64,000 nt of DNA from Euryarchaeota archaeon UBA558 (GCA_002507175.1 DAZE01000021.1:26695-90694), one strand, 5' to 3'; positions 25,379 through 49,694 are shown, numbered from the stretch's first letter. Numbers and translations are program-made. The notes: generated by a model from the sequence alone, not told the origin.

Positions 25379-25483
25379 TTTTAGAGGTGCAATCACGTAT
25401 CGCTGATTGACACTGCAACCGTCCCGCTTAAATGGAGAGGCAAGGTGGCCGCGATGCTGGACAGCCTCGGCTGTACTGGGTGA

Positions 25484-28400
25484 ATGAAAATGATAGACAA
25501 AAACGGCAACACCGATGTGGCCCAATTGAGAGGCATACTCGGCGGCCCAATAATGCTGGCAGCCGCCCTGTTTGTGTTCTTGATAGCTGCACAGGTCTCG
25601 GGACTGAATGGATGGACAGATGAAATAGGCCTCCTTGCTCTTCCTGCCGTGGCCGCCCTAGGCGCGGCTCTCGGGAGGATCAGCTCGGAGCACCCCTCTG
25701 CGAGCAACCTAAACAGTGCCATAGCCCCGAGCGCTTTTGTCCTGATCTCGATAATAACATCCTTCTTCGCCCCCGCTGCGATCTGCATGACCTTCCTTAT
25801 TGCCTCCCTCATCACACACCTTTTGGTGTCAAAGGGTCGTCCAGTGGAGGCCAACTTCCTCGTTGGGGGTTTGATTGGAATACAGTTTGCAATGATCTTT
25901 GCCTTGACCTCTGAGATACCAGACGACTCGCAAACAAATGCAACCCGTGCATACCTGGGGGCCAGATTCTCGGCCATGATGGCTGTCATGTTGATGGGCT
26001 CGCTATATGTTGCACTAATATTGTCAAAGACGATAGACAGGGCAAGTGAGAAGGGACTTCTCTCGGAACTTCCCTTCGACGTGGCCAGCAAGTCCACCCA
26101 CATCGCTGGTGGCGCTACCATGTCCTCACTCATGATACCCTTGATTTGGTTGTCTTCCATTGACGATCCCCAAATATACGAAGACGGAGCCTTCCTCGGC
26201 CCCTTCTGGGGGCTGTTTTCAGCAGCAATTGTACTGATCGTCGCGATGTTTAGGTCCGAGAGGTGGAACGTCTTGGCAGCGGTATTCTCGCTCAACTGGA
26301 TAATTTACACCCTCGGAAGACTGAATGATATAGGCGTTTCAGGTTTCCCAAATGCCTTGACGGAAGACGGATCGTATCCAATGATCCTGTGGCTCCTCAT
26401 CACATTCTGGTCTAATGTCGGTGTCATATTACTGGCATCCAGAGGTCATTTGGGAGCCATGGCTCCCCTCAGGGAACCATCTCCCTTGAGGAAATGGTGG
26501 CAAAGACATAGCTACGTCATTCTGGTGGGTATGGCCCTTGCGGCCGGATTCATCGTGAGAGTGGTTTGGAACGTGATTCCTGCCATGAACGCATCAGTAA
26601 TAGGAGAGTGGGACATGTCAGGCGGATCTGATCCGTGGTACATGAAGCGGATCATAGACTATGTCGCATACGAAAGGGCGCATTTCGTTTTTGATGCGGA
26701 CCGCAATTACCCCGTGGGAGGATTGAACCCTCGGCCGCCACTATTCTCCTGGTCACTTGCCCTTGGCGGTATTTTCCTTTCCTGGATTGCCGACATGCCC
26801 TTGAGTGAAGCAGTTTGGTGGTCAGTGGAAGCTCAACCTGCCGTTTGGGGCGCATTGATTGTACTCCCTGTAGCAGCAACGGCCAAGAGGTTCCATTCCC
26901 CACTGGCGGGAATTGCCGCTGCTTGGCTCATCGCATTCATGCCAGGCCATATCACACACTCTACATTCGGCCTCGCAGACCACGATTCATTTGCCATGTT
27001 CTTCCTAACACTTGGCTTCTACTGGTGGGTCAGGTCAATGATGGGCATCAAACAAGAGAGGCTCTTCTCGAGAACGTCTTGGAATCCACTGTACATCCTC
27101 GCAGGAATCAGGCTAATGTGGCGCAATAATCGCATAATCATGATACACTCGACATTGGCAGGAGTTTCTTTTGCAATTGCCGGTCTTGCATGGAAAGGCT
27201 ACGTCTATGCCCCGGGAATCCTCTTCCTTGGGTATTCAGGCATCGTTTTCCTGAACCTATTCAGAGGTCGGGATGCCTTACCTATCACCGCAACAATGCT
27301 TCAGATGCTGTTAGCTGCAATCCTAATTCCGTTGCCCTTCTACATTTGGCCAGGGATGAACCTACTGACGAACCCAAGTGGCATGGCTCCGCTACTTTAC
27401 ATGCTGGGATTCACAGTCGGCCTAGGCTACGTTATTTCTGCCTCCCGGGACAAGCCATGGCTCATGGTCTTCACGACCACAGCAATTTTGTCCCTATCTG
27501 TACTGGGGGGTCTGTTCATCCTTCAGACACTTGACTTGTACGCTGGATGGGACATATTGGTCACTGGTGGGTTCTACTTCTCCAAAAACAAGGTTTTCTC
27601 AACAATAGGTGAAGCCCAGGCCCCCGACAGAGGAATCTTGTTTGCCTCATTCGGCCCCATAGTCACTATTGCCGCCATCGGATACGGCCTCATGTTGATA
27701 TGGAGGGGGGGAAGGAAGGAGAATCCAGCCTCATTCACGCTTGGAACATGGATCGTGGTTGCATCTTACATGTCATGGACTGCAGGTCGCTTCATATTCA
27801 ATGCAGGACCTCCAATGGCCGTAGTTGGCGGCGTAGGCCTGACCGCAATGTGGGCGTATGCGAACCCTACAGAATTTGTGAAACTCTGGAAGAAAACCGG
27901 TGTCGGATCACCAAGGGCCAGATTCAACAGCACTTTCTCTGCGAGCAGGTCCAGACCAGGGGTTCCAGCGGCTTTGATGGTCCTCCTAATCGTATTTTCA
28001 CAACACGCCACCTACGGTATCGATTCAGGAATACCCAGGGGAGATTCATCAGCGGGAGATGTTGATCAAGCAATTCAAGGGATTATGCCCGACGTCCTCC
28101 GATACGAAGTTCTAGGTTTTTCTGTATTGAATTCCAACCAATATTCTCCAGACGAGCGGTGCTCCAGTGGCTGCTGGTATCTGGGAACTTTCGGCCCCGG
28201 GTTCAACGGGGGAGGATGGAACATGGCATATGAGTGGCTATCTGAGCAGGACTCAGAATCAACTTTTACCGAACGACCAGCTTTCCTCTCTTGGTGGGAT
28301 TATGGGTTCCAAGCCTTGTCTCATGGACAACACCCCACCGTCGCCGACAATTTCCAAACCGGGATACCCATATCAGGAAACATCCTGCTTAGTTCAGGCC

Positions 28401-31400
28401 AGGAGGATGTACTTTCCCTGATGGCAATGAACGCATTAAGAATGGGCGGTGTCTCAGATCCCGACAATAGGGCCGTTCTAGAACAATACTTTGAGGAGAA
28501 CCAGATCCGGGAGTTGGAACGAATTCACAGTATGTCCTCTGAAGACGTTGAGGCCCGTGCGCTTGCCTTGATTCATGAGGATGATGAGGTACAACTAGTC
28601 AAGGGAGCATTCCTGGCGAAATCTGGTTTGCCATCTAAGTCTGGCTGGTACGTCATTGATGGAGGGGAGATTGTTCAAGACCGCTTTGACGACCTCGGTG
28701 GGGCGATGAAGCTTTTCAACACAACTAGATCATCATCAAGCTACTTCTCAGAGAGCCCCACCCACTATATAATCGGTGGCTATAGATACACAGCAGACCT
28801 CATAGAAGACTACAACGACTTATCCACGGGGATCCACAGGGAAAATGCCAAATTAGCAGTTGGCAGAGCATTCATAACTCATGTTTTGGATCTTGATCAA
28901 ATCGTAGGCCTTGTCTCTGATCTAAGTGAGATACAACATGATGTACAAACGTTTGAAGGAAGACTAGGGGAAACGGCCCAAAGGAACACTGACGTCAGAT
29001 ATTTCGCAATCGATGACAGACTTTACCCATTGGGCGGATTGTTCTATGAGGGCTATAACTATCATGGTGGCCAAACCACAGGTATTTTCTACGCTCCAAC
29101 TACACTGGCGGGCCTTGATCCTGAAGACTACATCTCCAGCAGTTATCTCACCAGAAGGGGGGATGGCCCCATAATCCCACGAACAGCTGGCGAATATGAA
29201 CAGGAATATCTGGATGACATAGTCCGACAACAATCAGGCGCTATAACAGACCAGAGCCAGATAATTAGCCTTGAAGACATCGATTACATCCAGCAACCTG
29301 AATTTTTCGAAACATTCCTGGCCCGTACATACGTTGGTTATGGCACGACATCTCTAGGATTGGATCCGGATAATACTGGTCAACCCGGGCCCACATGGGC
29401 AAAATCCGGAACGCCTACAACGCCCCTTAGGAACGCTTACGCTCTCCCTGGCGCGATGATGAATCACTTCGTTCTCGCAAATTATCATGACGATGGGTCT
29501 GATTACGTGGATTCAGACTCCGATGGTACCCCGGACATATACAATTGGAGCAACCCGCGCGAAGATCCAAGTGGCTACTACAACGCAATAGGAACAGCTA
29601 ACTCCAATGTCAAGATACTCAAGTATTACAGTGGAGCTACGCTCAACGGGCAAGTGACTTTAGAAACCGGTGAACCTGTTCCCAATGCAAAGATTCTGAT
29701 CGAGAGGGACGCCTTCAGCTATGAAGAAGGTACTGACACAGACCCGAGGACTTACTGGATACCCATCGGCTCAGAAACAACAGACGATGAAGGTCACTTT
29801 TCTTCCACTATTCCCTCTGGGAAGATACGGATTAGTGCCTTCTATGGAGCAGTGGATGAATCAGGAGCAAGAGCCCAAATAGAATCTGGCGCGTTTGACA
29901 TGCTTTCCGATATAACCAGAGAACAGCAAGAGGGGGAAGATCGCGTTATCAACCCCATTTCAGCCATTTTGGGTGGAGTAGCTGGAACCACATACCTCGG
30001 AGCCGAGGTTTTAGTGGTATCAGGGGAGGAAGGGCACAGCAATGGGGCCTCAGTACTGACAGTCGACGTCAGTGTACCTGCAGTCGCATCGACGGGGCAG
30101 GTCCAATGGACTGGTGACGAGTCGTTTATCGGCGACCCTGTAAAGAATGCAACGGTAATTCTTACACCATCAGACCCAGATGCCACCCATCATGGATATG
30201 CAGTTTCCACATCCTCAGGCTCAATAGAGGGCGAGGGCCTCTACTTCACAGGCGAGGGAAGCGCGATCTTCGATGGCTCAGGCCAATTTGACTCATCGAG
30301 CCCGGCCAAGGCAGAGGAATTCACAGGAAGGCTGAGTCAGACAATAAGGAACAACCAATCGGTGATCGGTACCGGAACTTTTGTCGGAAATGGAATACTA
30401 ACAGGCACACTCGCTGATGGTTCCGTGCCATCAGCCTGTGATGCCAACGACACCTTGCCGGACAATCTGGAAGTCTGCACGTCTCAGAACGGAGAGATAG
30501 TGGTCTCTGGCTCAGTCAATGCAACGGGAAGATTCGTATCAGCAGGCCAATCGGAGTTCATTCGAGACTACGAGAATGCGTCTTTCACCGCCGCAGGCAG
30601 ATTCATTGTAGACGAGGGCAACTCCGGAACCATAACGGGGAATGGAGTATTCCAAGGGGACGGTGTATTTAGTGGCCTGATGGTCAGGGAGGGCACATTC
30701 CACATCTCTGATGCCATACCTGGGGAATATAGCGTCCGGATCGTGATGAATACCGGCCAAGAAATTGAGGTTGATGAGAAATTCTCAATCCTCAGAACCC
30801 CCTCAGCAGAAACAAGGCTCGTACAAGTGGAGGGCCTCTCTGTTAACGCCCTATTGACGAAGGAGGATGGATCCCTACCCACGGGTAATGTGATACTCAC
30901 CGACACGGAATTGCAAGGTTATACCGCGACACAACCCTGTTCTGATGGACTAACATCCCCATGCTCAGTACCCATTGGGGAAGGCGGAACTATCTCAATC
31001 GGGCCAATACCATCCAGATCACACACGATATCCTATGACTCTGATTTAGATGGCTTCTACGATCTGGTGGCAAGTGTGTTGCCAGAGGATGCTACTTCAG
31101 GATCCATAGAACTGGATCTCACGATCCCATTGACTGCGGACCTTGAAATCAGTCTTTTGTCTGAGTCTGGTGCAACTGTTCCCGACCTAGACCTGACGGT
31201 CAGAAGTGCTTCAGGACCTGGGATCTTCGACATGAACTACGACTCCGAAACGGAGACCTACAAAGCGGAGCTAGTTCCAGGTGAATACCAACTTAACTAC
31301 ACACAGGGAGACTCCCAGATATGGGAGTTGATCACCCTCGATGAGGATCTGTCCATGACCGCCCAGTTCAGGACGAGCTCACTTCTCTCTGGAACTGTTT

Positions 31401-34400
31401 TCACATCAGACGATGACGGTGACCCCGAAGCGGACGACTTCGTCCAATTTGCCGAAGTTGTGGCCAGATGGTCTGGCTTTGAGATATCTACAGTCGCAGA
31501 TGATGAGGGCAATTTCGAGTTCACGCTTCCAGTGGGGGAGAGTGTCACACTCACATCTACCGTCGGACTTGGCAATCTTGTCGATGGTTTGGTAGTGTTC
31601 ACATCCGAGGAAAACGACCACATCAACCTAGTCACAAGAAAAGGAGTTGTCTACGAGGGCATAGTTTCAGTGAATCGAGGCAACTACCTGTACGACAACT
31701 CCATATTGGGCTGGGAGCCACTTACAGTATTAGCAACCAACGAATCGTCTGAAGTCACTTGGACATCTGAGGTAACCGAAAATGGTAACTTCGAGATAGC
31801 CCTCCCAATAGGGGAATGGGAGATTTCATTGCTGGACAGTGAGTTTGAACACGCCACAGTAGCAATGGAACCAGACGCTACGATCGAATTAACCATATTC
31901 CCAGAGAACAGCACACTGAATTTATTTGCATTCATCGACTCATCCAGAGACGGTAATGTCGCCAACGGCACAGGAGTCATAGCTGATTTCAGAGTTGTAC
32001 CCTTGGATCAGAGTGGAATTCAAGAGAATTTCACTACTTCAGCCACTGGAACCGCCAGTGTGCAACTCGAGCCAGGGAATTATCTGATCGAAACCAGCAT
32101 ACTCAACCCAGATCAGACCCTTCACGGGACTAGGATCCTTACAGGGTCCACCAACATTCAGATTCCACTGAAGGGAACCATTCTGCAAAGAGATATTGGA
32201 TTCGACCCAGAGGGCGTCGTAAATATTACATTCACCGATCAACTACTCGCCCCCATTGCTGATTTAGAGATTAAATTCAGAAATGTTGACAGAGAACCTG
32301 TAATCGTCACTTCACTCACAACAGATGACGATGGAAACATCCTCGCATTATTGCCTGAGGGTAGAACGATAATCGAGATTGATGGCTTTGAGCCTGGCGA
32401 CCAGACTGTATTGGGTGCAAGATATGCAATTGATGTGATCGCAGGTGATCAATCATCGCCGATATCGATCGAATTAACGGAGATGGCAACTTTGAATCTT
32501 ACAATTTTGGACTCTGGAACATCCGATGGAATCCCGGATCAGAAAATTATCCTACAATCTCTAGATGGTTTGGGAACAATCAATATGCCCCCGACAAATG
32601 AAACAGGATTCACATCGACATTACTCGTACCCGGTGATTGGAGTGTAAGCCATGACGAGGAGACCAGTGGAGTTAGAGTCCTGATTCAAGAAACTCACAT
32701 AGACCAAATTCTAGCAGGTGAATATCGAGATATTCTACTCGACGCTCAAAAGGAAGTCATTCTATCTGGTAAGGTTTTCTGGGATTTTGACAAAGACGAT
32801 CAGGCTGATGTCGCGGAGGGCGTTTCCAATGCTACTGTTACAATTGACGACGGTCAAACCACTATTCAACTGGAAACCGATGAAACAGGATCATACTCCT
32901 CATTGGTCCCGGCGAATGCCTCTCTAAGCGTCACTGCCTCCAAGGACGGATTTACCACCACGGAGGAGAACTCTCTAATCAATGGAGAGCCAATTGATCT
33001 CGACATCGAGCTAACTGCAGGTACAGTTTCTGCCTCAGGCACTGTGACCTACCTAGGCCAATCGATAGATCCTCTGTGGTCCGATGATGTCGAAATAATC
33101 CTGGTGCCCAGAGAGGGCTTTGCTATGCCTCAAGTAACCGCAGAGAAGAATGGAGACGGCGAATGGGACGGTACTTGGTCTGTTGACCTAGAACCCGGGA
33201 GATATGTGCTTCAAGTGCGTGACACCACCAGAAACTTAGTGGCCTTCTCCCAAATATTCGCTGATCTAGTGAACGGTGGACAAGCGGACGTGGATCTAGT
33301 CCCCGGAGGATGGCTCCTAATGAATGGCTCATGGCTTGACTATGAGGGAAGCCTGCACTCAATCTCATCAGAGGACATGGATTTAGAAGGATCAGACATT
33401 CTGAATGATGAACTAACACTTCTGATGGAGTCTGGGCCGTCACTAGACTGGAGACTCGCGGTACCCGATGACGGGGAACTTAGAATCCTCTTACCTTCAG
33501 GACCAGTTACGATTTCCGGGGACTTCGACGTAGCTCAACAGGACAGGACAATGTCATATGAGGCAGGTCAGTCCATCAGTGTCCCATCCTCAACGATTTT
33601 AGACGCATTTGAGACTGCACCATTTGACCTGAGGTTCAACAGAATATCAAACAGCGATATCTCAGTAGCCTTGGTTTCCACTTCATCCGCCACCGTCGAC
33701 GATGACGGCATTCTGTACGCCAATAGCGACGGAGAAGGCGGCTACGAACCCATGCTCGTAGAGATCAAAGTTGACTATGAGGGTCATGAGACATCCGATG
33801 TTTTCAATTTGAGGGCCACAGTCCCTGGCACTGATGGAGCTGATTGGACTGTTCTGTTTGATAATGGATCTGGGGAATATTCAGACGCACCAACCCTTTC
33901 GATGTCCATCGAAGACGATCAAAAGACTGTCCAAGTCCAAATAACACCCCCCAACTCTACGGTGGCACGTCATTTCTCAAATGGAAGAGCTGTGACAATC
34001 CAGGTATTCTCGGACAACGGCGTTAACGAAGACGTTGAAGTGAAAGTCAACGTCCCAAAAATAACCGGTTGGAGTCTATCTGAGGCCCCCGAAGACGTTT
34101 ATGGTGTCAGACCCGGTTCTCAGGAGACTGTCCAACTCATCTTCCAAAACGATGGCAACTCAGATGAGGTATACTCAGTCTCATTCGATGACGGTGCATT
34201 GCCTCCAGGTTGGACAAGAACTGGAGCCCAATCCGTGACTGTTGGGGCATTTGAGAGTCAAGCGTTCTCGGTCATCATAGGTGCCCCGGAAAACGCCACT
34301 GACGAACCATACACACTCACCATGTTCGTAATAGGCGATGACCAAACGGAATACGAGCCCGTAGCAATTGACGTGTCCGCCCAATATGCGGTACTGTCCA

Positions 34401-34858: not shown

Positions 34859-34867
34859 CCGAGAATG

Positions 34868-34872
34868 GGTGA
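34868..34872 (+). promoter_or_regulatory. Shine-Dalgarno-like GGTGA 6 nt upstream of the subtilase ATG
   Basis: GGTGA-ccagca-ATG lies only 20 nt after the aglB stop, implying co-transcription and translational coupling. Confidence 0.4.
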
Positions 34873-34878
34873 CCAGCA

Positions 34879-36111: not shown

Positions 36112-36178
36112 CACCCATATTCCGCCTAGGGTTATATCTATTGACGGCTCCAGTGCTATCATGATCGACCGGCCCGTG

Positions 36179-40408: not shown

Positions 40409-40472
40409 GTATTACCCTGCCACGATCATCTGTAAACAATCCTTTTCATTGAGAAGGGCGTAAGCCAAAATC

Positions 40473-42998
40473 GTGTCTCGTCACAATACCGCCCGGCCTG
40501 GTGTGCAAATCCGCATACTGCTCCATCTTAGGGACTATGCTGATTACCGGGATCGGGTCGAAGTACCATTTGCACTATCTCAGATGGGTATCGCGAATGC
40601 TGTGTCAATTGCTAGGTCGAACGTACCTAGGGCGATTAGCTCCTTGAAAGAATCGGGTTATGTCATTGAAAGACAGGCACATATCACAGGAGTCACAAGG
40701 AAAAGAAAGGCATACTTCCTAACTGATGAAGGGGTGTCGCTTTCCGACGAAGTATGGGAATCAGTGTCGGAAAAATTCGTGAAAACCATTAATTCTGGAG
40801 GGGTAGTTGAAGAACTCTCAATAGCGGATTTGGTATCAAAATCAGAGATCGATCTACGGCATGTTGACATTCTGAGGTACATGGACGATGATGCGACAAT
40901 CGATCTAACAAGCCTAAACCCAGATCTAATTGAGAGGGACCTGACCAAACACATTGAACGGCAATTTGTCTCATCTCTGGCGGACATGCCTCGTGTCAAG
41001 CAATTTTTTGGGAGAGACAGGGAGTTAGATCAAATCGCAACCCTTCTCGAACAATCATCAACATCTGTGATTGTCCCAGGAATTGCTGGAATTGGCAAAA
41101 CAGCCCTAGCTGTCAAAGTGATTGAACGCTTCACTCATAGGAGAAATCTCCTATTCCATAGATGCCAGGAGTGGGATGGATCACGCGCCTTTTTGGAGGC
41201 TATTGGAGAGTGGCAGGGCCTACTGGGCCAAACGGAGTTGTCAGATTATCTTCAGGGTGCACAAACTCCCAGTCCTTCTATTTGCTCAAATCTAATCATC
41301 GAGGGGTTGAATAGATCACCATCTTTGGTGGTAATTGACGACGTACACAAAATAAGCGACGAAGCTCTAGCAACCATCCTAATTTCTGTCTCCAATAGGA
41401 TAGATGAATGTAAGCAGTCAGGAATAGTCCTCTTCACGAGATCATTCAGGAGGATGATCCCCGAGTTCGACACCAGGGGCAGGAGGGTCTCCACCTACCT
41501 GAGGCTCGAGGGCCTTGATCGCGATGCAAGCAGGCAACTCTTGAGTTCAATGCCCTCCATAGAGGACCCTGACTTCTCTCACATTTATGCCCTATCTAGG
41601 GGACACCCTCTTGTACTGGAACTGATAAATAGAGGAAACTTGGCCAATTCAGTACACACAACCCTTGAAGCATTCATAGAGAAGGAGATATTCAGCAGGC
41701 TCAACTCAGATGAAAAGAACATACTGGGTGCTATCTCTGTGTTCAGGGAGCCCATCCCCTTGGAGGCACTTCCCGGGAAAACAACCTCGGACTCGATTGA
41801 GAGCCTCATCGATAGAGGCCTAGCACGAAGGGCAAACCAAGATGAGTTAGATGTGCACGATTTGGTCAGAGAATTCTCATCTAGGTCTATGGATGAACAA
41901 ATACAACGAGACTTGCATAAACACGCTGCCGAATGGTACGGAAAAAAGTCAATGACGACCGGAGACAGGATAGAACATTTTCATCATCTGAACATGGCCA
42001 ACGATCTCGAGGCCCTTTCAGGAGTTCTGAAAAGCCACGGCCGGGATTTAGTGAAAGGCGGTCATACAGAACTACTCGGAATTTTAAGGGCCATAGAGGA
42101 TAACGGACTTGACCCAGATACACAATCAATGGTGCATGAGCTCTCTGGGGAAATTTTACTCATTCAAGGAATATGGGACGAGGCAGAGAAGGAACTCGAC
42201 TCAGCAGCATCCATTGCAAAGCGCATGAAGGATCCAAAAAGAATGTCGAGAATCCTCTCAACTCAGGCCGATTTAGAGGTCAAGCGCGGTGCTTTGGACG
42301 ATGCTCTTGAGACCCTGAGGCAAGCATTGGGCCTTCAAATCAAAACAAATGACGCCAAGGGTGCTGCAGACTCATATATCAGCATGGGAGCAATATTCAG
42401 GCAAAGGAGAGACGATCGTAGGGCAAGAGAGGTTTATGAGAACGTGGAGGAGATGTTGATGGTTGAAGATGCAGGGAAATTGATATCAGCACGGTTGAGA
42501 TTAGCCGATGGCTTCCTTGAGATCGGAGAGTCTGAGAAAGCAAGGAAGCATGCTATGGGCGTACACGATTTGTCCTTGGAATTGAATGAGCACCAACTAC
42601 ACGCACGATCGAGGGTCATACTGGGCAGGTACTATGCGAAGACGAGGGACTCAGAACTATCCCTGCTGCATTACAACGCGGCACTTGAGACGTTCTCCGA
42701 AGAGGCCAACCCGACCAATGCCGTTGAGACAGAGATGCTGCTCGGCCAGGTTCTGGTTGACGTTGGTAGAACCTCTGAGGCATCAGAACACTACCTAGAT
42801 GCCCTTTCAATCGCTGAAGCGAACGACTTCAGGCTATTACAAGCGGAAATTCTCGCTCGGTTAGGGACAATCAGGGGTGATAGATCCGAGAGGGTCGCCT
42901 ACCTGCAAAGATCCCTTTCCGTATTCAAAGACCTAGGGGCCCACACTAGGATGAAAGAAATTCAAAACTCAGTTCACAGGGCTTTGATGGGAAGGTAA
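40473..42998 (+). CDS. wHTH - P-loop ATPase (AAA_16/STAND-like) - TPR regulator
   Basis: GTG start. The N-terminal winged HTH is LSQMGIANAVSIARSNVPRAISSLKESGYVIERQ...KRKAYFLTDEG. It is followed by FFGRDRELDQI, Walker A PGIAGIGKTALA and Walker B LVVIDDVHKI. The C-terminal ~330 aa are TPR-like helical repeats (A..Y..A/L periodicity). Confidence 0.75.
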   Translation: MSRHNTARPGVQIRILLHLRDYADYRDRVEVPFALSQMGIANAVSIARSNVPRAISSLKESGYVIERQAHITGVTRKRKAYFLTDEGVSLSDEVWESVSEKFVKTINSGGVVEELSIADLVSKSEIDLRHVDILRYMDDDATIDLTSLNPDLIERDLTKHIERQFVSSLADMPRVKQFFGRDRELDQIATLLEQSSTSVIVPGIAGIGKTALAVKVIERFTHRRNLLFHRCQEWDGSRAFLEAIGEWQGLLGQTELSDYLQGAQTPSPSICSNLIIEGLNRSPSLVVIDDVHKISDEALATILISVSNRIDECKQSGIVLFTRSFRRMIPEFDTRGRRVSTYLRLEGLDRDASRQLLSSMPSIEDPDFSHIYALSRGHPLVLELINRGNLANSVHTTLEAFIEKEIFSRLNSDEKNILGAISVFREPIPLEALPGKTTSDSIESLIDRGLARRANQDELDVHDLVREFSSRSMDEQIQRDLHKHAAEWYGKKSMTTGDRIEHFHHLNMANDLEALSGVLKSHGRDLVKGGHTELLGILRAIEDNGLDPDTQSMVHELSGEILLIQGIWDEAEKELDSAASIAKRMKDPKRMSRILSTQADLEVKRGALDDALETLRQALGLQIKTNDAKGAADSYISMGAIFRQRRDDRRAREVYENVEEMLMVEDAGKLISARLRLADGFLEIGESEKARKHAMGVHDLSLELNEHQLHARSRVILGRYYAKTRDSELSLLHYNAALETFSEEANPTNAVETEMLLGQVLVDVGRTSEASEHYLDALSIAEANDFRLLQAEILARLGTIRGDRSERVAYLQRSLSVFKDLGAHTRMKEIQNSVHRALMGR

Positions 42999-43931
42999 TC
43001 AGTGATCCATCGAAATCCTCTTGCTTGCATCCTCCCCTATGCTATGAGTAAATTCGGGACCTTTCTTTCCAGAAATTGATAGGTCGCCATCAAAAAAATC
43101 ATGAATTTTCATCAAAACTTCGCTTTCTGCTATGTGAGGGGCGTTGTTTTTCTCAGATAGGTGGCAGAGCACGATAGATTTCGTTGATGCTGTGACTACT
43201 TCACGCAGGATGTTTGCTGTCTGGAGGTTGGAAAGGTGGCCACCGCGGCCAGAGATCCTTCTTTTTAGCGAATCGGGATAAGGGCCATTGAGAAGCTTAT
43301 TTTGATCATAATTCGCCTCGATGGAGATATGAGAACAGCCTTTCAGATGCTTTTTCAACTCATCGGTGGCTTCACCTAAATCAGTGACATAGGCTGCCCT
43401 TTCCCCTCCAGTGAAAATGATGAATGCAACATTATCTGCATTATCGTGGGGCACTGGAATCGGCATGACGCTAACATTGTTGTTAATCTCAATTCGATCT
43501 AGATCCGAAAAGGTTCGGACCTCCGACATAGGCTGCCAACCCATCCTAATCGCTGTTTCCAAGTTAGAATGCAATCTTGCACTCCATTTTATTGAAGATT
43601 TCAATGCGGATTTTGAGTGATCGGCATGATGGTGAGTGATTAGAATGTGGTCAATCTGATTTGGATTAATCCCGGCCAATAAAAGCCTTTTTTCCATCTG
43701 TTTTGTTGATAGCCCGCAGTCTATCAGAAATACCGTGTCCCCGTTTTTGTACACCACTGAATTGCCTGAACTACCAGAGCCTAGGTGTGTGATCTCAAGG
43801 GACACAATACAATGGTGTGTAAGTCGATCAATGAATGAATCTGTCGTAGGACGTCGAGCATAGGTATTGCTAGAATTATGGCAGTCGTACGAACACCGCT
43901 CCATTATGGTGATATATGGTCTGATAATCAC
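42999..43931 (-). CDS. metallo-beta-lactamase-fold hydrolase (YycJ/PhnP-like, COG1235)
   Basis: Carries HLGSGSSGNS...FLIDCG...ILITHHHADH (the HxHxDH motif). An in-frame GTG at 43805 (VSLEITHLGSGSSGN) would give a typical ~268-aa protein and free about 144 nt for divergent promoters. Confidence 0.75.
   Translation of the reverse strand: MIIRPYITIMERCSYDCHNSSNTYARRPTTDSFIDRLTHHCIVSLEITHLGSGSSGNSVVYKNGDTVFLIDCGLSTKQMEKRLLLAGINPNQIDHILITHHHADHSKSALKSSIKWSARLHSNLETAIRMGWQPMSEVRTFSDLDRIEINNNVSVMPIPVPHDNADNVAFIIFTGGERAAYVTDLGEATDELKKHLKGCSHISIEANYDQNKLLNGPYPDSLKRRISGRGGHLSNLQTANILREVVTASTKSIVLCHLSEKNNAPHIAESEVLMKIHDFFDGDLSISGKKGPEFTHSIGEDASKRISMDH
43912..43917 (+). promoter_or_regulatory. TATA-like ATATAT about 35 nt upstream of the ATG at 43950
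   Basis: This is the only strongly AT-rich hexamer in the divergent region between the MBL gene and the TSP3 giant gene. Confidence 0.25.
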
Positions 43932-43949
43932 CGCGAAGCGGGGACCGGC

Positions 43950-46900
43950 ATGAGGAGGAAACAGACAGCTGCCTTCCTCGCGATAATCATGCTATCCAGT
44001 GTCCTATTCCTCTCTCAGACTAGACCACAGAGCCCCGTTGGGACCACTAACCCCGAAGAGGCTACCGGAGGTGCACCAATCGCCGTCGACACTGATGAGG
44101 ATCTGATACCAGATGTCCATGAAAGTGCCTTTTCTGAATCTATTAGCATTGCCACATTGGAGGGAGGCTTTGCTGTGTCCGGTTTGGATCCTCTGGACTC
44201 CACGGACAACCTCAGCGATTATGACAGAGATGGCGCAAGCGCCTTGCAAGAATTCTGCTGGCCATACAGCCTAGAGTCTTGTTTCACGACCAGATTATCC
44301 TTGACAGGAAAATCCCCGGAGGAAACCGAGAGTGGATTCAGGGAGTACCTAGATCCAAGGAAGTCAGACACCGATGGAGATGGTCTTCCAGACGGCTTTG
44401 AGATTAGTATGTGCACAGATGGAGGTGCCGGATATATTGATCAGGCTTCTACTGCGTGGGTGTGCCTCCACTTTGACCCATTAGATCCCAGGGATGCATT
44501 CGAGGATCCAGATCAATGCCTTGGCCTACTTGAGTGGGGCTGTGGAGACGGATATGATTTCGACAGGGACGGAATCCTAGAACCCGGGGAGCGTTTTACG
44601 AGCTCTGAAGAATACAGGTATGCCCAGCCTGATAACTGGGTCGATGAGAGGGACGGACTTTGGTGTCAGGGCCCGATACCAGGGATAGCCGAGGGAGCAT
44701 GCCAATCCATGGTAGAGTCGGAAACTGGATCGCCTGGTTGGCTAGGTAGCGACCCAAGGTATCCAGACTCCGACTCATTCGCCATTGTTGATGGAGTTCC
44801 TACGCCATTAGCTGTGAGTGGCGATGGAATAACAGATGGCTGGGAACATCACTATGGATTGGATCCAAGGAATGCATCAGATGCGATCCTTGATTCCGAT
44901 CAGGATGGTTGGGATTCAAGTAGAGACGGAATATTGACCCCTGACAATTCAATCGCGACATCAATGTGGGGCGAGGCACTAAGCAATTATGAAGAGTTTA
45001 GGATATCACAAGACGATGGGTTCTCAGTAAGGCCCGGGTTATATCTCAGTTCCATGGACCGACCGTTGGAAGCTAATTTTCTGACTGAGACCTCACAACC
45101 GAGGATCGCAGATTCGGCGATTGTCGGTACCCACGTATCGGAAAACCAAGGAATAGTGGTAATCACCTCTAGAAATGGAGTGACAATCCTAGATCCATTA
45201 TCCTACACGACCCAAATCTTTGACCAACCTGTACCTGGGACAATATCAGATTCCTTGCTAATCTCTTTGGCAGACAACTCTGTCGCTCTCGTGCTGACAT
45301 CCAACCTTGGTATCGGGGCATTCCAACTCACTCAAGAAGGACTGAACCCCGACTCTTCCTTCTTCCTCCAATCAGACCCAATATTGTCCGCTAATCCATT
45401 GTCCTCATCAATGGGGCCAGGGGCGCTCCTTATTTTTGGAAAAGGTGGACAAGCACACACAACAAGGATCAATCTTGACCAAGGAGTCATATCAATTGAG
45501 AGCCCAACAACTGTGGAAGTACTTGAACAGACTCTCAGGGCCAGAAACGCCACGGGTTCCGTTTCTCTACATGTCGAGAGACCAGGTGACACTCCTCTTC
45601 TTTTGATTGGCACGGACAGCGGTTTGATCCGCTGGACGACAAATGATCTCTCAGACACCTTCGGATCACCTATCTGGGTGTATACTAGGGACAACGCAGA
45701 AACCTTTGTTGGAATTGCAGACTTACTCAACTCATCTAAATCGGCAATTGTGAACCTTCTTGAGCCTGCGGGGGTACTAACCAGCAGTGGGCAAATTGGG
45801 CAGTTGACAGGCGTGTGGCTAGGAACTCCCTCAGGCATTCACTTCATCGATCTAGAGGATCTGATTTTTGACCCTCTTTTCGCCATATCCAATGAGAGAA
45901 TGTACAATCCTGAGGCGTGGCTCTCCGGTGGGAATGATGTACTATCTGTTAAGCAAATCCCGGGCATGCTACTCGTTGGTTCAAGGGATGGTTTGTGGGC
46001 ATTAGAGGGTGATGGTAGTGGAATATTAGGCATGATTGAACCTCCTGTCATGATGCGAGGTCCAATTTCAGATGTTACATCCTGGTCCTCTGATGGTGAG
46101 CAGTGGATTGCCTCAGGGGTTGAATCTGGACAATACATGAATATCCACCCCATCGACCCAACATCTCCGGACTCTGATTACGATGGCATGCCCGATGGAT
46201 GGGAATTCTATCATGGCCTTGATCCAACGAACCCATACGATGCACCACGCGACAAGGACACTGATGGATTCGAGGTTGATGGCCCATTTGGATTTGAAGC
46301 TCCGTGGACAAACTTAGACGAATTTCGCTACACCTCCATATCCGAAAACGGATCGAATGGAACTGACCCGCGATTGGTGGATTCCGATGGAGATGGCCTG
46401 TCCGATGGTGAAGAGTATTGGGGATGGTTTTACGATTCTACTTTGTTTCAGTGCCACTATCTTTCAACCGGTGGACCTGGCACACCAGCTCAAATATGCG
46501 ATGAATCGGACGGCGTTCTTGCTAGACAGGTCCATTTGGCAGGCTGGCTAAATTCCGGATCAGGAGGTGGGACAGACGTTCCAACAGATCCAACTAATCC
46601 AGACACGGACGGCGATGGGATGCCGGATGGATGGGAAATCAGAAACAGACGGTGGATAGGCGTCGACTACACAGGAGGAAATCTCTGGACACTTGATCCC
46701 CTCGACCCATCGGATGCAAACGAAGATGCAGATGGCGATGGCCTTACCAATGCCTGTGAGTATCGGTGGTCAGTTCTGCTTGAGACTGTCAGAGAGAACG
46801 GCCTGACAACACACGGGGAGTCGGCCCAAAGCGCCGCATCATGGGTCGCGACCGATCCAAACCTCATTGACTCAGACGGGGACAGTTTGCCTGATGGTTG

Positions 46901-49694
46901 GGAAGCCCGATATGCATGCTCATGGAATCTGAACAATATAGGAATTAACCCCTTGAATGGATCTGATGCATTTCAAAACCCAGACGGCGACGGATATGAT
47001 GTTGATGGGGACGGGAACCTTTCCATAGAAGAGCAATTTGTCAATTGGTTCGAATATCACCTGAGAACGGAAATTCTTGTTGGAGGGGCGTGGGAGTCCT
47101 CTGAGAACCTCCCGGACAACTTGACGACATGGCTATTCAACTCCTCAGATCAAATAAGTGATCCTCAGGGTTCATTTGGCGATTTAGCAAGCACAGAGGT
47201 GATCAGCCTCTTGACAGGCATTACCGAACTTGATGTCGGCTCCTCAAATCCAGTTTCTTCAGACACTGACTCAGATGGCATGCCAGATGGATGGGAGGCT
47301 TACCACGCAAGATGGTCCGTTTTCGAGGATAAATGGACGCTCAATCCTGTTAACGGTGATGATAATGTAGGCGATCCGGATGGAGATGGTTTGACTAATT
47401 GGGAGGAATACAACTCCATCCAAGGTAACATGAGCGAGATTGACTCTCTCATCACAGCGCCCCAATTCTATCTACTGAACAGCGGCGGAGATTGGCTTCC
47501 AACACCTTGGTTGACCGCAGACTCAACCTCGTCTTTCGGGGAATCGGCGAAATTATTACACCCAGACAGCCCAATTACAGCGGATCCGAATAATCCCGAC
47601 ACTGACGGTGACGGGTTGCTAGACGGAGTTGAGATGATTTTTACAAAGTGGAATTACGAAGAGGAGACATGGACATTGAATCCACTTGTGCCATCTGACG
47701 GATACTACGACTCAGATCGTGATGGTCTTACGGACTTAATCGAATTGAACTTAACTAATACGAATCCTGAGAACGGTGCCCTAGCCCCTCCTGATGCACC
47801 AAGGTTCCACGAAGAGGCTTCAACGCTGGATGCACTTGAGTCAATGAATAGGGTGTATCGAGTTTTGTTTACCAAACAGGGCAGGGCACATATCGCAATT
47901 TCACAATTCAACGAATGGCAGTCTGACGGCTTCATGAGGCCCTTGTTGGCGTCCCTTGTTGGGGTATCCGATCCGAGTGAACAAGATACTGATCGAGATG
48001 GAATGAGTGATGGGTACGAATACTGGTTCACTGAGTGGGACTTGGAGGCAAATGAATGGACAATCAATCCTTTAACTTCCACAGATGTAAATCGTGATTC
48101 TGATAAAGATTCATGGGATTGCAATGGGGATGGTACGATCTCCCCTTCAGAATCTTTCACCAATCTGGCTGAATATGAATCTCGAATCTATGGCAAACTT
48201 CTCGCGGTCGATACAATTCCCTCAGGAATAGGTACAGTCTCATATGGTAGCGATGCCATCAACGCCCTCAGGTTCGAGAGTGGCCTTTCAGAAGATGAGG
48301 CTATAGAAAGTCTCTATGTGACGTTCTCGACTAAGTCAGACCAATCGCTAGAAAGGATGGGCCTCATCAATCAGTTCAATCCAGATAGTTTCAACCGAAC
48401 CCTCCTTGGAATAAGCGACCCAACTAATGACGACTCTGACATGGACGGCCTCCCGGATGGCTGGGAATATTGTTATTCTGTCTTTGGACATTGGCAGCCC
48501 TTGCCAGAAACGCAATTGAGATGGTCACTAAACCCATTGAACCCACTAGACGGCTCATATGACCCAGATTCAGATGGATGGTATGATAGGACGAACTCAG
48601 ATGTAGCTGCTACTCAGGGAACCTGGGCCAACCGAGTTTTCCAACCGTCAAATCTAACCGATCAAATCGACGTAGGGCTAACACCGTTGCTGTTCACAAA
48701 TCTAATGGAATACAGAAACGGTACACTGCCCCTATCCAACGACACTGATCGAGACTCTGTACTAATGGAACCAGAATTCTCACTAACGGGTTCCGTAGTC
48801 TCCTACAATCAAAATTACAATCTTTCCGATGGAAGAGAGATCCTCAAATACGGGACAAACCCATTGGACAACGACACTGATGGCGACATGATGCCCGATT
48901 TCTATGAGTATCACCTTGGGTGGAATGAAATAAACGACAACTGGTCTTCATTGATGCAAATAGAGGTTGTCTGGCAACAAATATCCTCCAACAGTTGGAA
49001 ACCAGTGAACATAAATGGCGGCTCAATCATGAGGCCAATCCTGAATTGGACGTGGTTTACCTTGGATCCAACCGATCCTACCGATGTAGGTGGAGATGCG
49101 GACAAAGATGGCGACTACGAGTGCAATTTAGGGGGTTGTCAATACGTCCCATATACGAATTTTCAAGAGTATTTCGGAATAGTCAACGCCACCCTGTCAT
49201 CACCAGCACTCGTCAGAGCAGCTCCCCTTGTTGATTGCAGAGGAAATGAAGTCGAGGAAGGGTGGCAATTCAGAGAAGTAGTCTTGGGTCTCTGCGGAAA
49301 TGCTCCATCATCATCCAGCAATTACCTCCGAATGAACAGGATAAGTCAGAGTGACACTCTCTATGCATTAATTATAGATGATAATGACCAAGACTACACT
49401 CAGATAGATACTACCAATGACAATGTGATCCTAAGTGGGAATTGGACTGATTCATTCCAGAGATTTGCTGGTGATCAATTCCATCTTCCCAACACTGGGC
49501 TGGGCGAATATCCATATGGTTGGTGGTTCCTTGACTTTGACGGAGACTCAATCGCCGAGGGCACTAGCCCGACAAACTGGGATACAGACGGAGATTGGTT
49601 GAACGACAGGTTCGAAATCGCCGATGATCTCATCGATGGCATTCGAGGCAATTCAGGCTCTCCCATAAGATATGACGACAGAACAGTACCCTGA
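43950..49694 (+). CDS. giant secreted protein with about 12 bipartite TSP3-type calcium-binding repeat units and a central beta-propeller-like region
   Basis: The ATG at 43950 gives MRRKQTAAFLAIIMLSSVLFLSQ. Repeated D-x-D-x-D-G-(M/L)-P-D-G-W-E motifs include DTDGDGLPDGFE, DSDYDGMPDGWE, DTDGDGMPDGWE, DSDGDSLPDGWE, DTDSDGMPDGWE and DSDMDGLPDGWE. Each is followed by W(T/S)LNPL and a second Asp-rich loop. Around aa 400-760, Reg_prop-like strands appear (LLIGTDSGLIRW, VWLGTPSGIHFID, LLVGSRDGLWALEG). Confidence 0.8.
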   Translation: MRRKQTAAFLAIIMLSSVLFLSQTRPQSPVGTTNPEEATGGAPIAVDTDEDLIPDVHESAFSESISIATLEGGFAVSGLDPLDSTDNLSDYDRDGASALQEFCWPYSLESCFTTRLSLTGKSPEETESGFREYLDPRKSDTDGDGLPDGFEISMCTDGGAGYIDQASTAWVCLHFDPLDPRDAFEDPDQCLGLLEWGCGDGYDFDRDGILEPGERFTSSEEYRYAQPDNWVDERDGLWCQGPIPGIAEGACQSMVESETGSPGWLGSDPRYPDSDSFAIVDGVPTPLAVSGDGITDGWEHHYGLDPRNASDAILDSDQDGWDSSRDGILTPDNSIATSMWGEALSNYEEFRISQDDGFSVRPGLYLSSMDRPLEANFLTETSQPRIADSAIVGTHVSENQGIVVITSRNGVTILDPLSYTTQIFDQPVPGTISDSLLISLADNSVALVLTSNLGIGAFQLTQEGLNPDSSFFLQSDPILSANPLSSSMGPGALLIFGKGGQAHTTRINLDQGVISIESPTTVEVLEQTLRARNATGSVSLHVERPGDTPLLLIGTDSGLIRWTTNDLSDTFGSPIWVYTRDNAETFVGIADLLNSSKSAIVNLLEPAGVLTSSGQIGQLTGVWLGTPSGIHFIDLEDLIFDPLFAISNERMYNPEAWLSGGNDVLSVKQIPGMLLVGSRDGLWALEGDGSGILGMIEPPVMMRGPISDVTSWSSDGEQWIASGVESGQYMNIHPIDPTSPDSDYDGMPDGWEFYHGLDPTNPYDAPRDKDTDGFEVDGPFGFEAPWTNLDEFRYTSISENGSNGTDPRLVDSDGDGLSDGEEYWGWFYDSTLFQCHYLSTGGPGTPAQICDESDGVLARQVHLAGWLNSGSGGGTDVPTDPTNPDTDGDGMPDGWEIRNRRWIGVDYTGGNLWTLDPLDPSDANEDADGDGLTNACEYRWSVLLETVRENGLTTHGESAQSAASWVATDPNLIDSDGDSLPDGWEARYACSWNLNNIGINPLNGSDAFQNPDGDGYDVDGDGNLSIEEQFVNWFEYHLRTEILVGGAWESSENLPDNLTTWLFNSSDQISDPQGSFGDLASTEVISLLTGITELDVGSSNPVSSDTDSDGMPDGWEAYHARWSVFEDKWTLNPVNGDDNVGDPDGDGLTNWEEYNSIQGNMSEIDSLITAPQFYLLNSGGDWLPTPWLTADSTSSFGESAKLLHPDSPITADPNNPDTDGDGLLDGVEMIFTKWNYEEETWTLNPLVPSDGYYDSDRDGLTDLIELNLTNTNPENGALAPPDAPRFHEEASTLDALESMNRVYRVLFTKQGRAHIAISQFNEWQSDGFMRPLLASLVGVSDPSEQDTDRDGMSDGYEYWFTEWDLEANEWTINPLTSTDVNRDSDKDSWDCNGDGTISPSESFTNLAEYESRIYGKLLAVDTIPSGIGTVSYGSDAINALRFESGLSEDEAIESLYVTFSTKSDQSLERMGLINQFNPDSFNRTLLGISDPTNDDSDMDGLPDGWEYCYSVFGHWQPLPETQLRWSLNPLNPLDGSYDPDSDGWYDRTNSDVAATQGTWANRVFQPSNLTDQIDVGLTPLLFTNLMEYRNGTLPLSNDTDRDSVLMEPEFSLTGSVVSYNQNYNLSDGREILKYGTNPLDNDTDGDMMPDFYEYHLGWNEINDNWSSLMQIEVVWQQISSNSWKPVNINGGSIMRPILNWTWFTLDPTDPTDVGGDADKDGDYECNLGGCQYVPYTNFQEYFGIVNATLSSPALVRAAPLVDCRGNEVEEGWQFREVVLGLCGNAPSSSSNYLRMNRISQSDTLYALIIDDNDQDYTQIDTTNDNVILSGNWTDSFQRFAGDQFHLPNTGLGEYPYGWWFLDFDGDSIAEGTSPTNWDTDGDWLNDRFEIADDLIDGIRGNSGSPIRYDDRTVP
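44088..49616 (+). repeat. span of the divergent coding repeats for TSP3-like Asp-rich loops
   Basis: The first unit is DTDEDLIPDVHE (nt 44088) and the last is DTDGDWLNDRFE (ending nt 49616). Codon usage differs between copies, so these are old protein-level repeats. Confidence 0.6.

Follow-up and report, generated by a model that had tools for sequence, protein, structure and literature searches.

A 64-kb stretch of DNA from the marine Poseidoniales (Marine Group II, MGII) archaeon Euryarchaeota archaeon UBA558, referred to here in its full length as the window, contains six neighbouring genes that encode a giant AglB (25484-34858, 3,124 aa), an S8 subtilase (34879-36111, 410 aa), a beta-helix surface protein (36179-40408, 1,409 aa) and a STAND regulator built of HTH, NTPase and TPR parts (40473-42998, 841 aa), all on the plus strand, followed by a metallo-beta-lactamase (MBL) hydrolase on the minus strand (42999-43805, 268 aa) and a giant with TSP3 repeats on the plus strand (43950-49694, 1,914 aa). 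With evenly balanced confidence, the region is read here as a conserved surface neighbourhood of the Poseidoniales and not as a discrete six-gene island: a housekeeping giant AglB comes first, then a trio of S8, beta-helix and STAND genes specific to the order, and then two later neighbours. A functional tie within the trio is plausible, albeit unproven. A preliminary description had instead taken the six genes as one co-regulated module for a glycosylated, calcium-stabilised adhesion or polymer-degradation apparatus, in which AglB would act on the two other giants as their glycosylating enzyme and the subtilase as their processing protease, with the set under the control of the regulator. Such a module is improbable; the apparatus is not established by the data presented below, and each of its components belongs to a known kind of protein.

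One genome was sampled per GTDB species, and a scan with the S8 alignment gave 12 Poseidoniales loci with full-length orthologues, whose open reading frames (ORFs) were compared by BLAST with the window proteins; three further loci, reached through AglB orthologues, bring the related loci to 15. As far as the contigs reach, the order aglB-S8-beta-helix-STAND is kept in all 15; identities are 39-91% (S8), 40-57% (AglB core), 32-95% (beta-helix protein) and 43-95% (STAND). The same four-gene order is found in SIMO Bin 19-2, a metagenome-assembled genome (MAG) of the Thalassarchaeaceae genus O1 (Damashek et al. 2021, PMC9723583), and, by its MG2_ tags, in a second genome. Genes 297-320 of SIMO Bin 19-2 share their order with about 50 kb of the window, a section that runs from the CD36-like gene to ribosomal protein S15, and their eggNOG seed orthologues are ordered as MG2_1285 (carS), 1284 (purD), 1283 (aglB), 1281 (S8) and 1279 (STAND), with MG2_1293 (TctA) and MG2_1264-1260 (DnaJ, ArcS, S15) on either side. 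The MG2_ tags presumably denote the MGIIa genome of Iverson et al. 2012. Outside the order, S8, the beta-helix orthologue and STAND lie beside the giant aglB in none of six outgroup loci (L087, L089 and L093-L096), and tblastn on four of these confirmed that the trio is missing there. In the data sampled, the three genes are order-specific, length-conserved and apparently single-copy, and they occur only together.

Conserved order is in itself a weak test in these genomes, because unrelated housekeeping neighbours pass it equally well. In particular, purD is the immediate upstream neighbour of aglB in all loci that extend so far, and carS and three more upstream genes are conserved in two of the loci (L090 and L092). 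Since purD and carS are equally syntenic and some 50 kb are collinear with SIMO Bin 19-2, synteny singles out no module. These observations, together with the ordered MG2_ tags of the second genome and an aglB-S8 spacer that varies from 20 to about 200 nt and at times holds hairpins, are what would be expected if the adjacency followed from the high collinearity of Poseidoniales genomes alone, the roles of the genes being unrelated and their tie to aglB no closer than that of purD or carS. Descent of this kind is a somewhat unlikely explanation of the whole picture: the order-specific trio is found only together while both flanks of the wider block change, conserved cytoplasmic peptides are present on all three membrane proteins next to a TPR protein, and a repeat array lies between the S8 and beta-helix genes in the vicinity of an HTH regulator.

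The synteny that the preliminary description had anticipated beyond this genome holds throughout for the first four genes and, for the last two, within one subclade only. The MBL gene is convergent with STAND, stop abutting stop, and divergent from the TSP3 gene, as originally described. Both genes follow STAND only in L007-L009 and SIMO Bin 19-2, which make up the nearest subclade, and most genomes with the other four genes are devoid of them, which speaks against a six-gene module. L011, L013-L018 and L090-L092 have at this position two other convergent genes, for a DUF7266 protein of about 157 aa and a DUF7289 protein of about 740 aa, both with type IV pilin-like hydrophobic N-termini (for example L014 18229-20744, minus strand); this pair was sought in the window and is not there. 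The MBL gene and the TSP3 giant are inferred to be later, clade-specific neighbours outside the conserved core. The MBL protein matches Pfam Lactamase_B, is RNase Z/BN-like by NCBIfam, and has neither a signal peptide nor a transmembrane (TM) segment by hydropathy. The highly acidic TSP3 giant begins with a signal peptide and lacks a C-terminal TM segment; its TSP3_bac repeats (Pfam, 35.7 bits) and CglD-like similarity (NCBIfam, E 2e-12) are those of Poseidoniales TSP3 proteins and of CglD-like bacterial adhesins. Thrombospondin-type genes have been found to be widespread in Poseidoniales and linked to adhesion (Rinke et al. 2019, PMC6461757). Compared with these, the window copy is a clade-specific neighbour only, and another TSP3 gene is found elsewhere in L090.

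The AglB protein is predicted from its sequence to be an STT3-type oligosaccharyltransferase with intact catalytic motifs. Its core (26504-29383, aa 341-1300) combines multiple TM segments with an external catalytic domain and matches Pfam STT3 (PF02516) over aa 363-694 with 49.2 bits against a cut-off of 24.5, and a crude hydropathy scan shows about 13 hydrophobic segments past residue 340. The motifs SDPWY (26627-26641, aa 382-386), DHD (26978-26986, aa 499-501) and WWDYG (28292-28306, aa 937-941) are unchanged in nine orthologous Poseidoniales giants. Sequence matches of the core in the PDB are human STT3A and the C-terminal domains of A. fulgidus AglB; DHD is aligned to DNE of STT3A, and WWDYG to the WWDYG of the same protein. 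The core thus shares with described archaeal AglBs (A. fulgidus AglB-L, Haloferax volcanii AglB) and with eukaryotic STT3 the multi-TM STT3 domain, the acidic motif of the first loop, the DxD-type motif and WWDYG in the external domain. The NCBIfam model archaeo_STT3 (TIGR04154), for the archaeosortase A-associated oligosaccharyltransferase, gives 130.8 bits, well under its cut-off of 450.

The window AglB differs from these enzymes in size and in two additions. Described AglBs have roughly 600-1,000 aa, and the window protein is three to four times longer. In front of the core lies an extension of about 340 aa (25484-26503, aa 1-340) with about eight hydrophobic segments in the hydropathy scan, which has no Pfam match even at E 0.5 and is confined to Poseidoniales giants. 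In one AglB orthologue (P0199, from the high-GC locus L092), a TSP3-like acidic insert, DTDGDN...DSDGDGTLDFDEDVDDD, is present at residues ~170-200, in a loop of this membrane extension. Behind the core, an acidic extracellular stalk of about 1,800 aa (29384-34741, aa 1301-3086), made of an array of CarboxypepD_reg/Ig-like beta-sandwich domains with an NPCBM_assoc-like end, leads to a second membrane anchor, a C-terminal TM segment placed by hydropathy and followed by a short basic cytoplasmic tail ending in PNAPF (34742-34858). The stalk would thereby return to the membrane through its C-terminal helix. It is kept in all giants, Poseidoniales orthologues being identical to the window in about 30-40% of the alignment columns, and a PDB sequence search with it yielded no relatives. 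The C-terminal TM segment and basic tail are likewise conserved in all giants. In every Poseidoniales giant seen, the tail (window 34826-34855) ends in [P/R/G]F-COOH (APF, PRF, SRF, KRF, PGF, IPF, KPF), an ending which is not found in the Thermoplasmata/Ferroplasma giants and which co-occurs with the S8/beta-helix/STAND trio.

The weak Pfam matches of the stalk domains (29384-34741) include NOMO1-like families at E ~0.01, with faint precomputed ones in orthologues. Eukaryotic NOMO consists of a long array of prealbumin-like domains with one terminal TM helix; the resemblance likely reflects shared superfamily membership only.

The core (aa 331-1300) was compared exhaustively by HMMER with representative sequences, and the outcome shows that the giant design is general in Thermoplasmatota, including Ferroplasma. 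About 11 representatives of 3,146-3,228 aa have a core that begins at residue 330-390, and more than 100 representatives of 2,050-2,770 aa, with 29-38% identity, have one that begins at residue 20-60. The shorter group includes a Thermoplasmata archaeon and a Ferroplasma sp. on a 1.86-Mb contig, whose giant (L089 10001-16171, CP133597.1) is labelled by NCBI as 'GT39' or 'carboxypeptidase regulatory-like domain' and not as AglB. An STT3 core, a long beta-sandwich array, an NPCBM_assoc/CARDB-like end, a C-terminal TM segment and a basic tail make up the plan common to all giants. Because such giants are found elsewhere in Thermoplasmatota without the other three genes, the enzyme is not dedicated to the cluster; a giant AglB older than the cluster, and devoid of the trio in all six outgroup loci, is also a point against the six-gene module. 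In SIMO Bin 19-2, COG1287 is assigned once among 1,251 genes, to the 9,537-bp aglB. From the catalytic motifs, the spread across Thermoplasmatota and this single COG1287 gene, the giant AglB can be regarded as the general, and probably the sole, oligosaccharyltransferase of the cell. The published table of that genome already labels the orthologue aglB (Damashek et al. 2021, PMC9723583). A literature search found no description of the giant design or of the four-gene arrangement; subscription journals were poorly covered, and absence is not proven by it.

The outgroup loci contain further large proteins near the giant aglB. In the Thermoplasmata locus L087 (1-6512), a product called at 8,356 aa and then a 1,077-aa Ig/PKD protein are encoded upstream of aglB on the same strand; a 3,555-aa NosD/beta-helix protein is encoded about 8.6 kb upstream on the opposite strand in L096; and downstream of the L093 aglB, at a distance of 4 kb and beyond purD, a beta-helix protein of more than 2,304 aa is encoded.

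The proposal that AglB glycosylates its giant neighbours was evaluated by setting sequon counts against a composition-based expectation; it did not hold for the beta-helix protein and is weak for the TSP3 giant. The window AglB has 26 sequons where about 19 are expected, the beta-helix protein 10 against about 14 (0.71 versus 0.98 per 100 aa) and the TSP3 giant 22 against about 17 (1.15 versus 0.89 per 100 aa), so that the TSP3 giant is only mildly enriched (1.3-fold). Among orthologues, the median ratio of observed to expected is 2.2 for both groups of AglB giants, 0.92 for 72 beta-helix proteins, 1.5 for S8, where counts are small, and 0.41 for STAND, which serves as a cytoplasmic control. 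The beta-helix protein (0.92-fold) is thus not enriched, which together with the mild value of TSP3 disfavours the six-gene module. Within the window AglB, the core has 4 sequons against about 5 expected and the stalk 22 against about 14; stalk sequons reach 2-4 times expectation in other Poseidoniales, and the Ferroplasma stalk has 69. Given the sequon excess in the stalk and its absence in the beta-helix protein, the best candidate substrate in the cluster is AglB's own stalk and not the giant neighbours. AglB would N-glycosylate proteins of the cell in general, with its own sequon-rich stalk among the substrates.

The first member of the trio is predicted to be a type-II membrane-anchored subtilase. 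The protein consists of a cytoplasmic N-tail (aa 1-50), one TM segment (~aa 55-80) and an external catalytic domain that matches Pfam Peptidase_S8 (E 2.6e-39). The triad D115/H152/S332 and the oxyanion residue N250 are unchanged in 13 orthologues, and so is much of the N-tail (LELMPEPED...TAVD..APGYPG..YG). No propeptide domain was detected in the protein, and its nearest solved relatives are ordinary subtilisins. Its best NCBIfam match is mycosin (TIGR03921, E 1.7e-30, 106.4 bits, below the cut-off of 278.75). Mycosin, the MycP protease of the type VII secretion system (T7SS), likewise has an S8 domain on a single TM helix; unlike mycosin, whose anchor is C-terminal, the window protein is anchored at its N-terminus, behind a conserved cytoplasmic segment of about 50 aa, and no T7SS genes are found in the window. 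Being held close to the membrane, the subtilase may process or shed surface proteins or cut external peptides.

The second member comprises, in order, a signal peptide, a right-handed beta-helix (~aa 30-560), beta-sandwich domains with a DxDxDGxxD-like Cys-rich insert, a TM segment (~aa 1339-1361), and a tail of about 45 aa that includes an acidic linker. Pfam identifies Beta_helix (30.9 bits, cut-off 25.9) and Big_7, and NosD-type repeats are also present; all 73 orthologue clusters have 1,283-1,488 aa. The AlphaFold2 (AF2) model of aa 1-1200 has a mean predicted local distance difference test (pLDDT) score of 82.6; that of aa 25-600 reaches 87.8, with a predicted TM-score (pTM) of 0.87. The helix domain was modelled alone because Foldseek of residues 1-1200 as one model had returned generic tandem Ig/FN3 arrays only, which are the match of the part outside the helix. 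Against the PDB, the helix domain then matched PL6 alginate lyases, the mannuronan C5-epimerases AlgE4/AlgG, GH110, DFA-IIIase, phage tailspikes and one adhesin, with TM-scores of 0.3-0.45, E ~1e-4 to 1e-5 and 8-13% identity; a profile of the family searched against PDB sequences gave Ig-domain matches only. On the model, the ectodomain is predicted to be a right-handed beta-helix of the polysaccharide lyase/epimerase/hydrolase fold with Ig-like domains, and it may bind or modify a polysaccharide, either an algal polymer or the glycans of the cell itself. The fold of residues ~30-560 and the Beta_helix/NosD-type repeats are shared with PL6, AlgG/AlgE, GH110 and tailspikes, whereas in the window protein the helix is joined to Ig-like domains and followed by a TM anchor and a cytoplasmic motif that is conserved. 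This motif, PGWLWD-x5-WVPE in the window (40352-40396), is near-unchanged as (H/D)PGW(L/I/R)WD-x5-WVPD in orthologues of 34-95% identity, with a linker before it that is free to vary, and it is in no other ORF of the loci scanned for it. As regards the claim that the giants are exported, it does not apply to AglB, which is a polytopic membrane enzyme with an external stalk and a C-terminal TM anchor, and it applies in part to the beta-helix protein, which has a signal peptide but also a C-terminal TM segment and a cytoplasmic tail.

The third member is a cytoplasmic protein with a winged-HTH-like segment (aa 9-72), a P-loop NTPase and a TPR array (~aa 545-835). In a conservation map, Walker A (GIAGIGKT, 203-211) and Walker B (VVIDDVH) are near-unchanged, as is the HTH segment (aa 9-58). 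Pfam matches above cut-off are AAA_16 (38.6 bits, cut-off 32.6), AAA_22 (38.0, cut-off 27), NB-ARC (25.3, cut-off 23.5) and TPR_12 (57 bits, cut-off 30.1, four passing stretches); at the N-terminus HTH_Crp_2, HTH_36 and MarR_2 match, each under its own cut-off. Orthologues form 712 clusters and, among those listed, mostly have 838-851 aa. NCBIfam shows weak similarity to the TPR regions of AfsR and MalT, and both equivalog models failed (MalT NF003420, 32.9 bits versus a cut-off of 537; AfsR NF053617, 36.5 versus 1430). The protein is like AfsR and MalT in combining a P-loop NB-ARC/AAA_16 NTPase, a TPR sensor array and a putative DNA-binding domain, and like AfsR in the N-terminal position of this domain and in the direct repeats before the neighbouring gene in most relatives. 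It differs from both in its MarR/Crp-like winged helix (below cut-offs), in that no LuxR, BTAD or SARP domain was found by Pfam, and in being archaeal, so that it must act with a TBP/TFB promoter. The STAND protein may be pictured as a transcription factor switched by ATP and a ligand, in the manner of AfsR and MalT.

The combination of a STAND NTPase with TPRs could also suggest an antiviral Avs-like sensor, with the cluster as a defence island, and PADLOC gave two weak matches, one with a generic TPR model and one with a candidate system, that point in the same direction. These matches are marginal (E 2.6e-4 and 6.9e-4) and have no passing stretch, and a defence identity was rejected. Moreover, the N-terminal domain is HTH-like and not an effector, and an apparently single-copy, length-invariant gene at a fixed position throughout the order is the opposite of the defence-island pattern. 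The probability of a defence role is close to negligible.

Among the points in favour of one module, the four plus-strand genes are tightly packed, with gaps of 20, 67 and 64 nt, and a Shine-Dalgarno (SD)-like site, GGGTGA (34867-34872), is found 6 nt ahead of the S8 ATG, both as originally described. In the window, the 20-nt gap and the SD-like site favour a coupling of aglB and S8; among loci, this spacer holds hairpins in some. The putative promoter and leader of aglB (25428-25483, plus strand), read from sequence, contains a TATA-like TTAAAT (25428-25433), a palindrome CAGCCTCGGCTG (25462-25473) and an SD-like GGGTGA (25478-25483) directly before the ATG. When 10-11 orthologous upstream regions were compared, 9 of 10 had a TATA-like TTAAAA/TTATAA together with the palindrome CAGC(C)-N2-4-(G)GCTG; since RNAalifold found no consensus structure in the leader, the palindrome is given as a sequence observation only. 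Another TATA-like element, TTATAT, lies in the S8-to-beta-helix spacer of the window, and in relatives this spacer is long and AT-rich, with repeat arrays and hairpins. A scan of the window for bacterial-type promoters and terminators was uninformative for archaeal DNA. With promoter-like regions of their own at aglB and at the beta-helix gene, a single operon of four genes is unlikely; the region appears to have at least two promoters, and aglB and the beta-helix gene would each be transcribed from its own, which is a further point against a six-gene module.

The aglB leader also holds a possible upstream ORF of 10-13 codons, from GTG 25445 or ATG 25454 to the TGA at 25481-25483 on the plus strand, which abuts the aglB ATG. 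Its peptide (..MLDSLGCTG) has similar same-frame counterparts in several relatives (VAKMLASLAAV.., VAKTLQPLGC.., VGALLSPWLV..) and is fused to AglB in two of them. The upstream ORF overlaps the palindrome at 25462-25473, and the constraint may be on the peptide, the RNA or a DNA site.

The spacer between the S8 and beta-helix genes is the site of a repeat array in most relatives. A scan of both strands of the window and the 15 loci found 2-5 direct copies of [TC]GATA[CT] in this spacer in 11 of the 16 sequences, mostly as pairs 19 nt apart and across spacer GC contents of 20-68%. The paired form, [TC]GATA[CT]-N12-14-[TC]GATA[CT], is found on the plus strand of that spacer only and nowhere else in the 16 sequences. 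Examples of these GATAY arrays, all outside the window, are L008 11247-11311, L014 11246-11324, L015 11218-11285, L017 11273-11340, L090 21030-21098 and L092 21008-21033. Near the window cluster there is no GATAY pair, and matches with one mismatch are at chance level. AfsR/SARP-type regulators bind direct repeats of such a kind, and by analogy the array is a candidate operator of the adjacent HTH-STAND protein, which would act on the repeats before the beta-helix gene in most relatives. This link is a conjecture that cannot be shown in the window, because the array is absent there. If the regulator and the array are indeed paired, they would make a cis/trans pair amenable to testing, a rarity in an archaeal order without cultured members.

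Field transcripts provide a further view of the cluster. In SIMO Bin 19-2, coverage was 0.35/0.38 for aglB, 0.16-0.19 for S8, beta-helix and STAND, 0.01-0.05 for MBL and 0-0.08 for purD (Damashek et al. 2021, PMC9723583); the four core genes are at similar levels, with MBL about 10-fold lower. In the DESeq2 comparison for O1-active samples, the log2 changes were +2.05 for aglB (adjusted p 0.062), +1.91 for the beta-helix gene 307 (adjusted p 0.27), +1.05 for the TSP3 giant (not significant) and -0.05 for STAND, with S8 unlisted (PMC9723583). Concerning the co-expression claimed for the set, aglB and the beta-helix gene both change positively, the latter not significantly, and the regulator does not follow; the data are weak, compatible with a loose co-expression of aglB and the beta-helix gene and not decisive. 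For the six-gene module, the similar positive fold changes of these two genes count in its favour, together with the four of six genes that are syntenic across the order and with products that, except for the regulator and MBL, are membrane-bound or exported. Conversely, MBL is cytoplasmic and about 10-fold less transcribed, the regulator shows a change of -0.05, and that of TSP3 is not significant.

Several observations also weigh against the reading of a conserved surface neighbourhood preferred here. Synteny is unable to set the four genes apart from purD and carS. The composition null behind the sequon counts is imperfect, as cytoplasmic proteins come out at ~0.4-0.6. The idea of a sole oligosaccharyltransferase is based on one incomplete MAG annotation. 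The fold matches of the beta-helix are weak, and this domain could equally be an adhesin. Finally, the GATAY array is not in the window or in L007, L009, L013 and L018, though the HTH is unchanged there.

A closer tie within the cluster can be envisaged in the form of transmembrane signalling, in which the beta-helix protein would sense a polysaccharide, the subtilase would cleave the beta-helix protein or the AglB stalk, and the TPR array of STAND would read the cytoplasmic tails (PGWxWD...WVPD of the beta-helix protein, the S8 N-tail and ...[P/R]F-COOH of AglB) and switch transcription. Short peptides, among them C-terminal ones, are common ligands of TPR domains. In line with such a role, orthologues of 34-95% identity retain the cytoplasmic motifs even though the surrounding linkers differ, the terminal [P/R/G]F of AglB is found only in the trio-bearing lineage, and the NTPase and HTH of the regulator are intact. 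The tails could, however, equally serve cytoskeletal, secretion or sorting factors, and the cluster is without a regulated-proteolysis partner such as an intramembrane protease, making signalling of this type a doubtful proposition of low probability. At a similarly low level of confidence, the stalked AglB may be a self-glycosylating envelope arch, wired in Poseidoniales to the protease, a glycan-active beta-helix protein and the STAND regulator, whose TPR domain would read the conserved cytoplasmic tails, as an outside-in circuit for surface remodelling; about 20 beta-sandwich domains would then be pinned to the membrane at both ends and bear much of the glycocalyx.

Beyond these possibilities, two threads are of most interest in the conserved neighbourhood: a sequon-rich AglB stalk with two membrane anchors, found across Thermoplasmatota, and the cytoplasmic tails that are conserved beside a TPR regulator. 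Thermoplasmatota are mostly wall-less archaea, and Poseidoniales are among the most abundant archaea of the surface ocean and have never been cultured; no direct characterisation of the Poseidoniales envelope is known to us. If the stalk indeed carries glycans or acts as a spacer, this is relevant to the way in which a surface coat is made in archaea without a wall, and the cultivable Ferroplasma would offer an experimental handle on the stalked AglB.

The gene models and the setting of the cluster are consistent with the above. The six ORFs lie where the preliminary description had placed them, and its shorter gene models are upheld: the beta-helix frame is open from 36050, the MBL frame extends to 42999-43931 and the TSP3 frame to 43878-49694, and the shorter models of all three match gene calls on identical metagenome contigs and orthologue alignments. 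In particular, the ATG at 36179 yields a signal peptide and agrees with orthologue N-termini, and TSP3 orthologue alignments start at residue 22-25 of the long ORF, fitting a start at 43950. Its domain calls for all six proteins also agree with Pfam, the HTH matches of the regulator being below cut-offs. The flanking genes of the window are archaeal (eRF1, CDP-archaeol synthase, ribosomal S15/S13e, an archaeosine-type enzyme), marine metagenomes, Tara Oceans among them, have contigs that encode an identical S8 protein, and S8 relatives carry the labels Poseidoniales, Thalassarchaeaceae or Thermoplasmatota. An Rfam scan of the window found tRNA-Met alone.

Two further genes of the window have unusual domain contents. 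An acidic membrane or secreted protein of 893 aa (13136-15817, minus strand) has a Pfam match at residues 66-123 (E 1.5e-9) to the CD36 family, which is known mainly from eukaryotes; the published table of SIMO Bin 19-2 gives the same match for gene 297. At 50681-51565, one ORF joins a pyroglutamyl-peptidase (C15) region to a NUDIX domain, a fusion which is also annotated as gene 314 in SIMO Bin 19-2.

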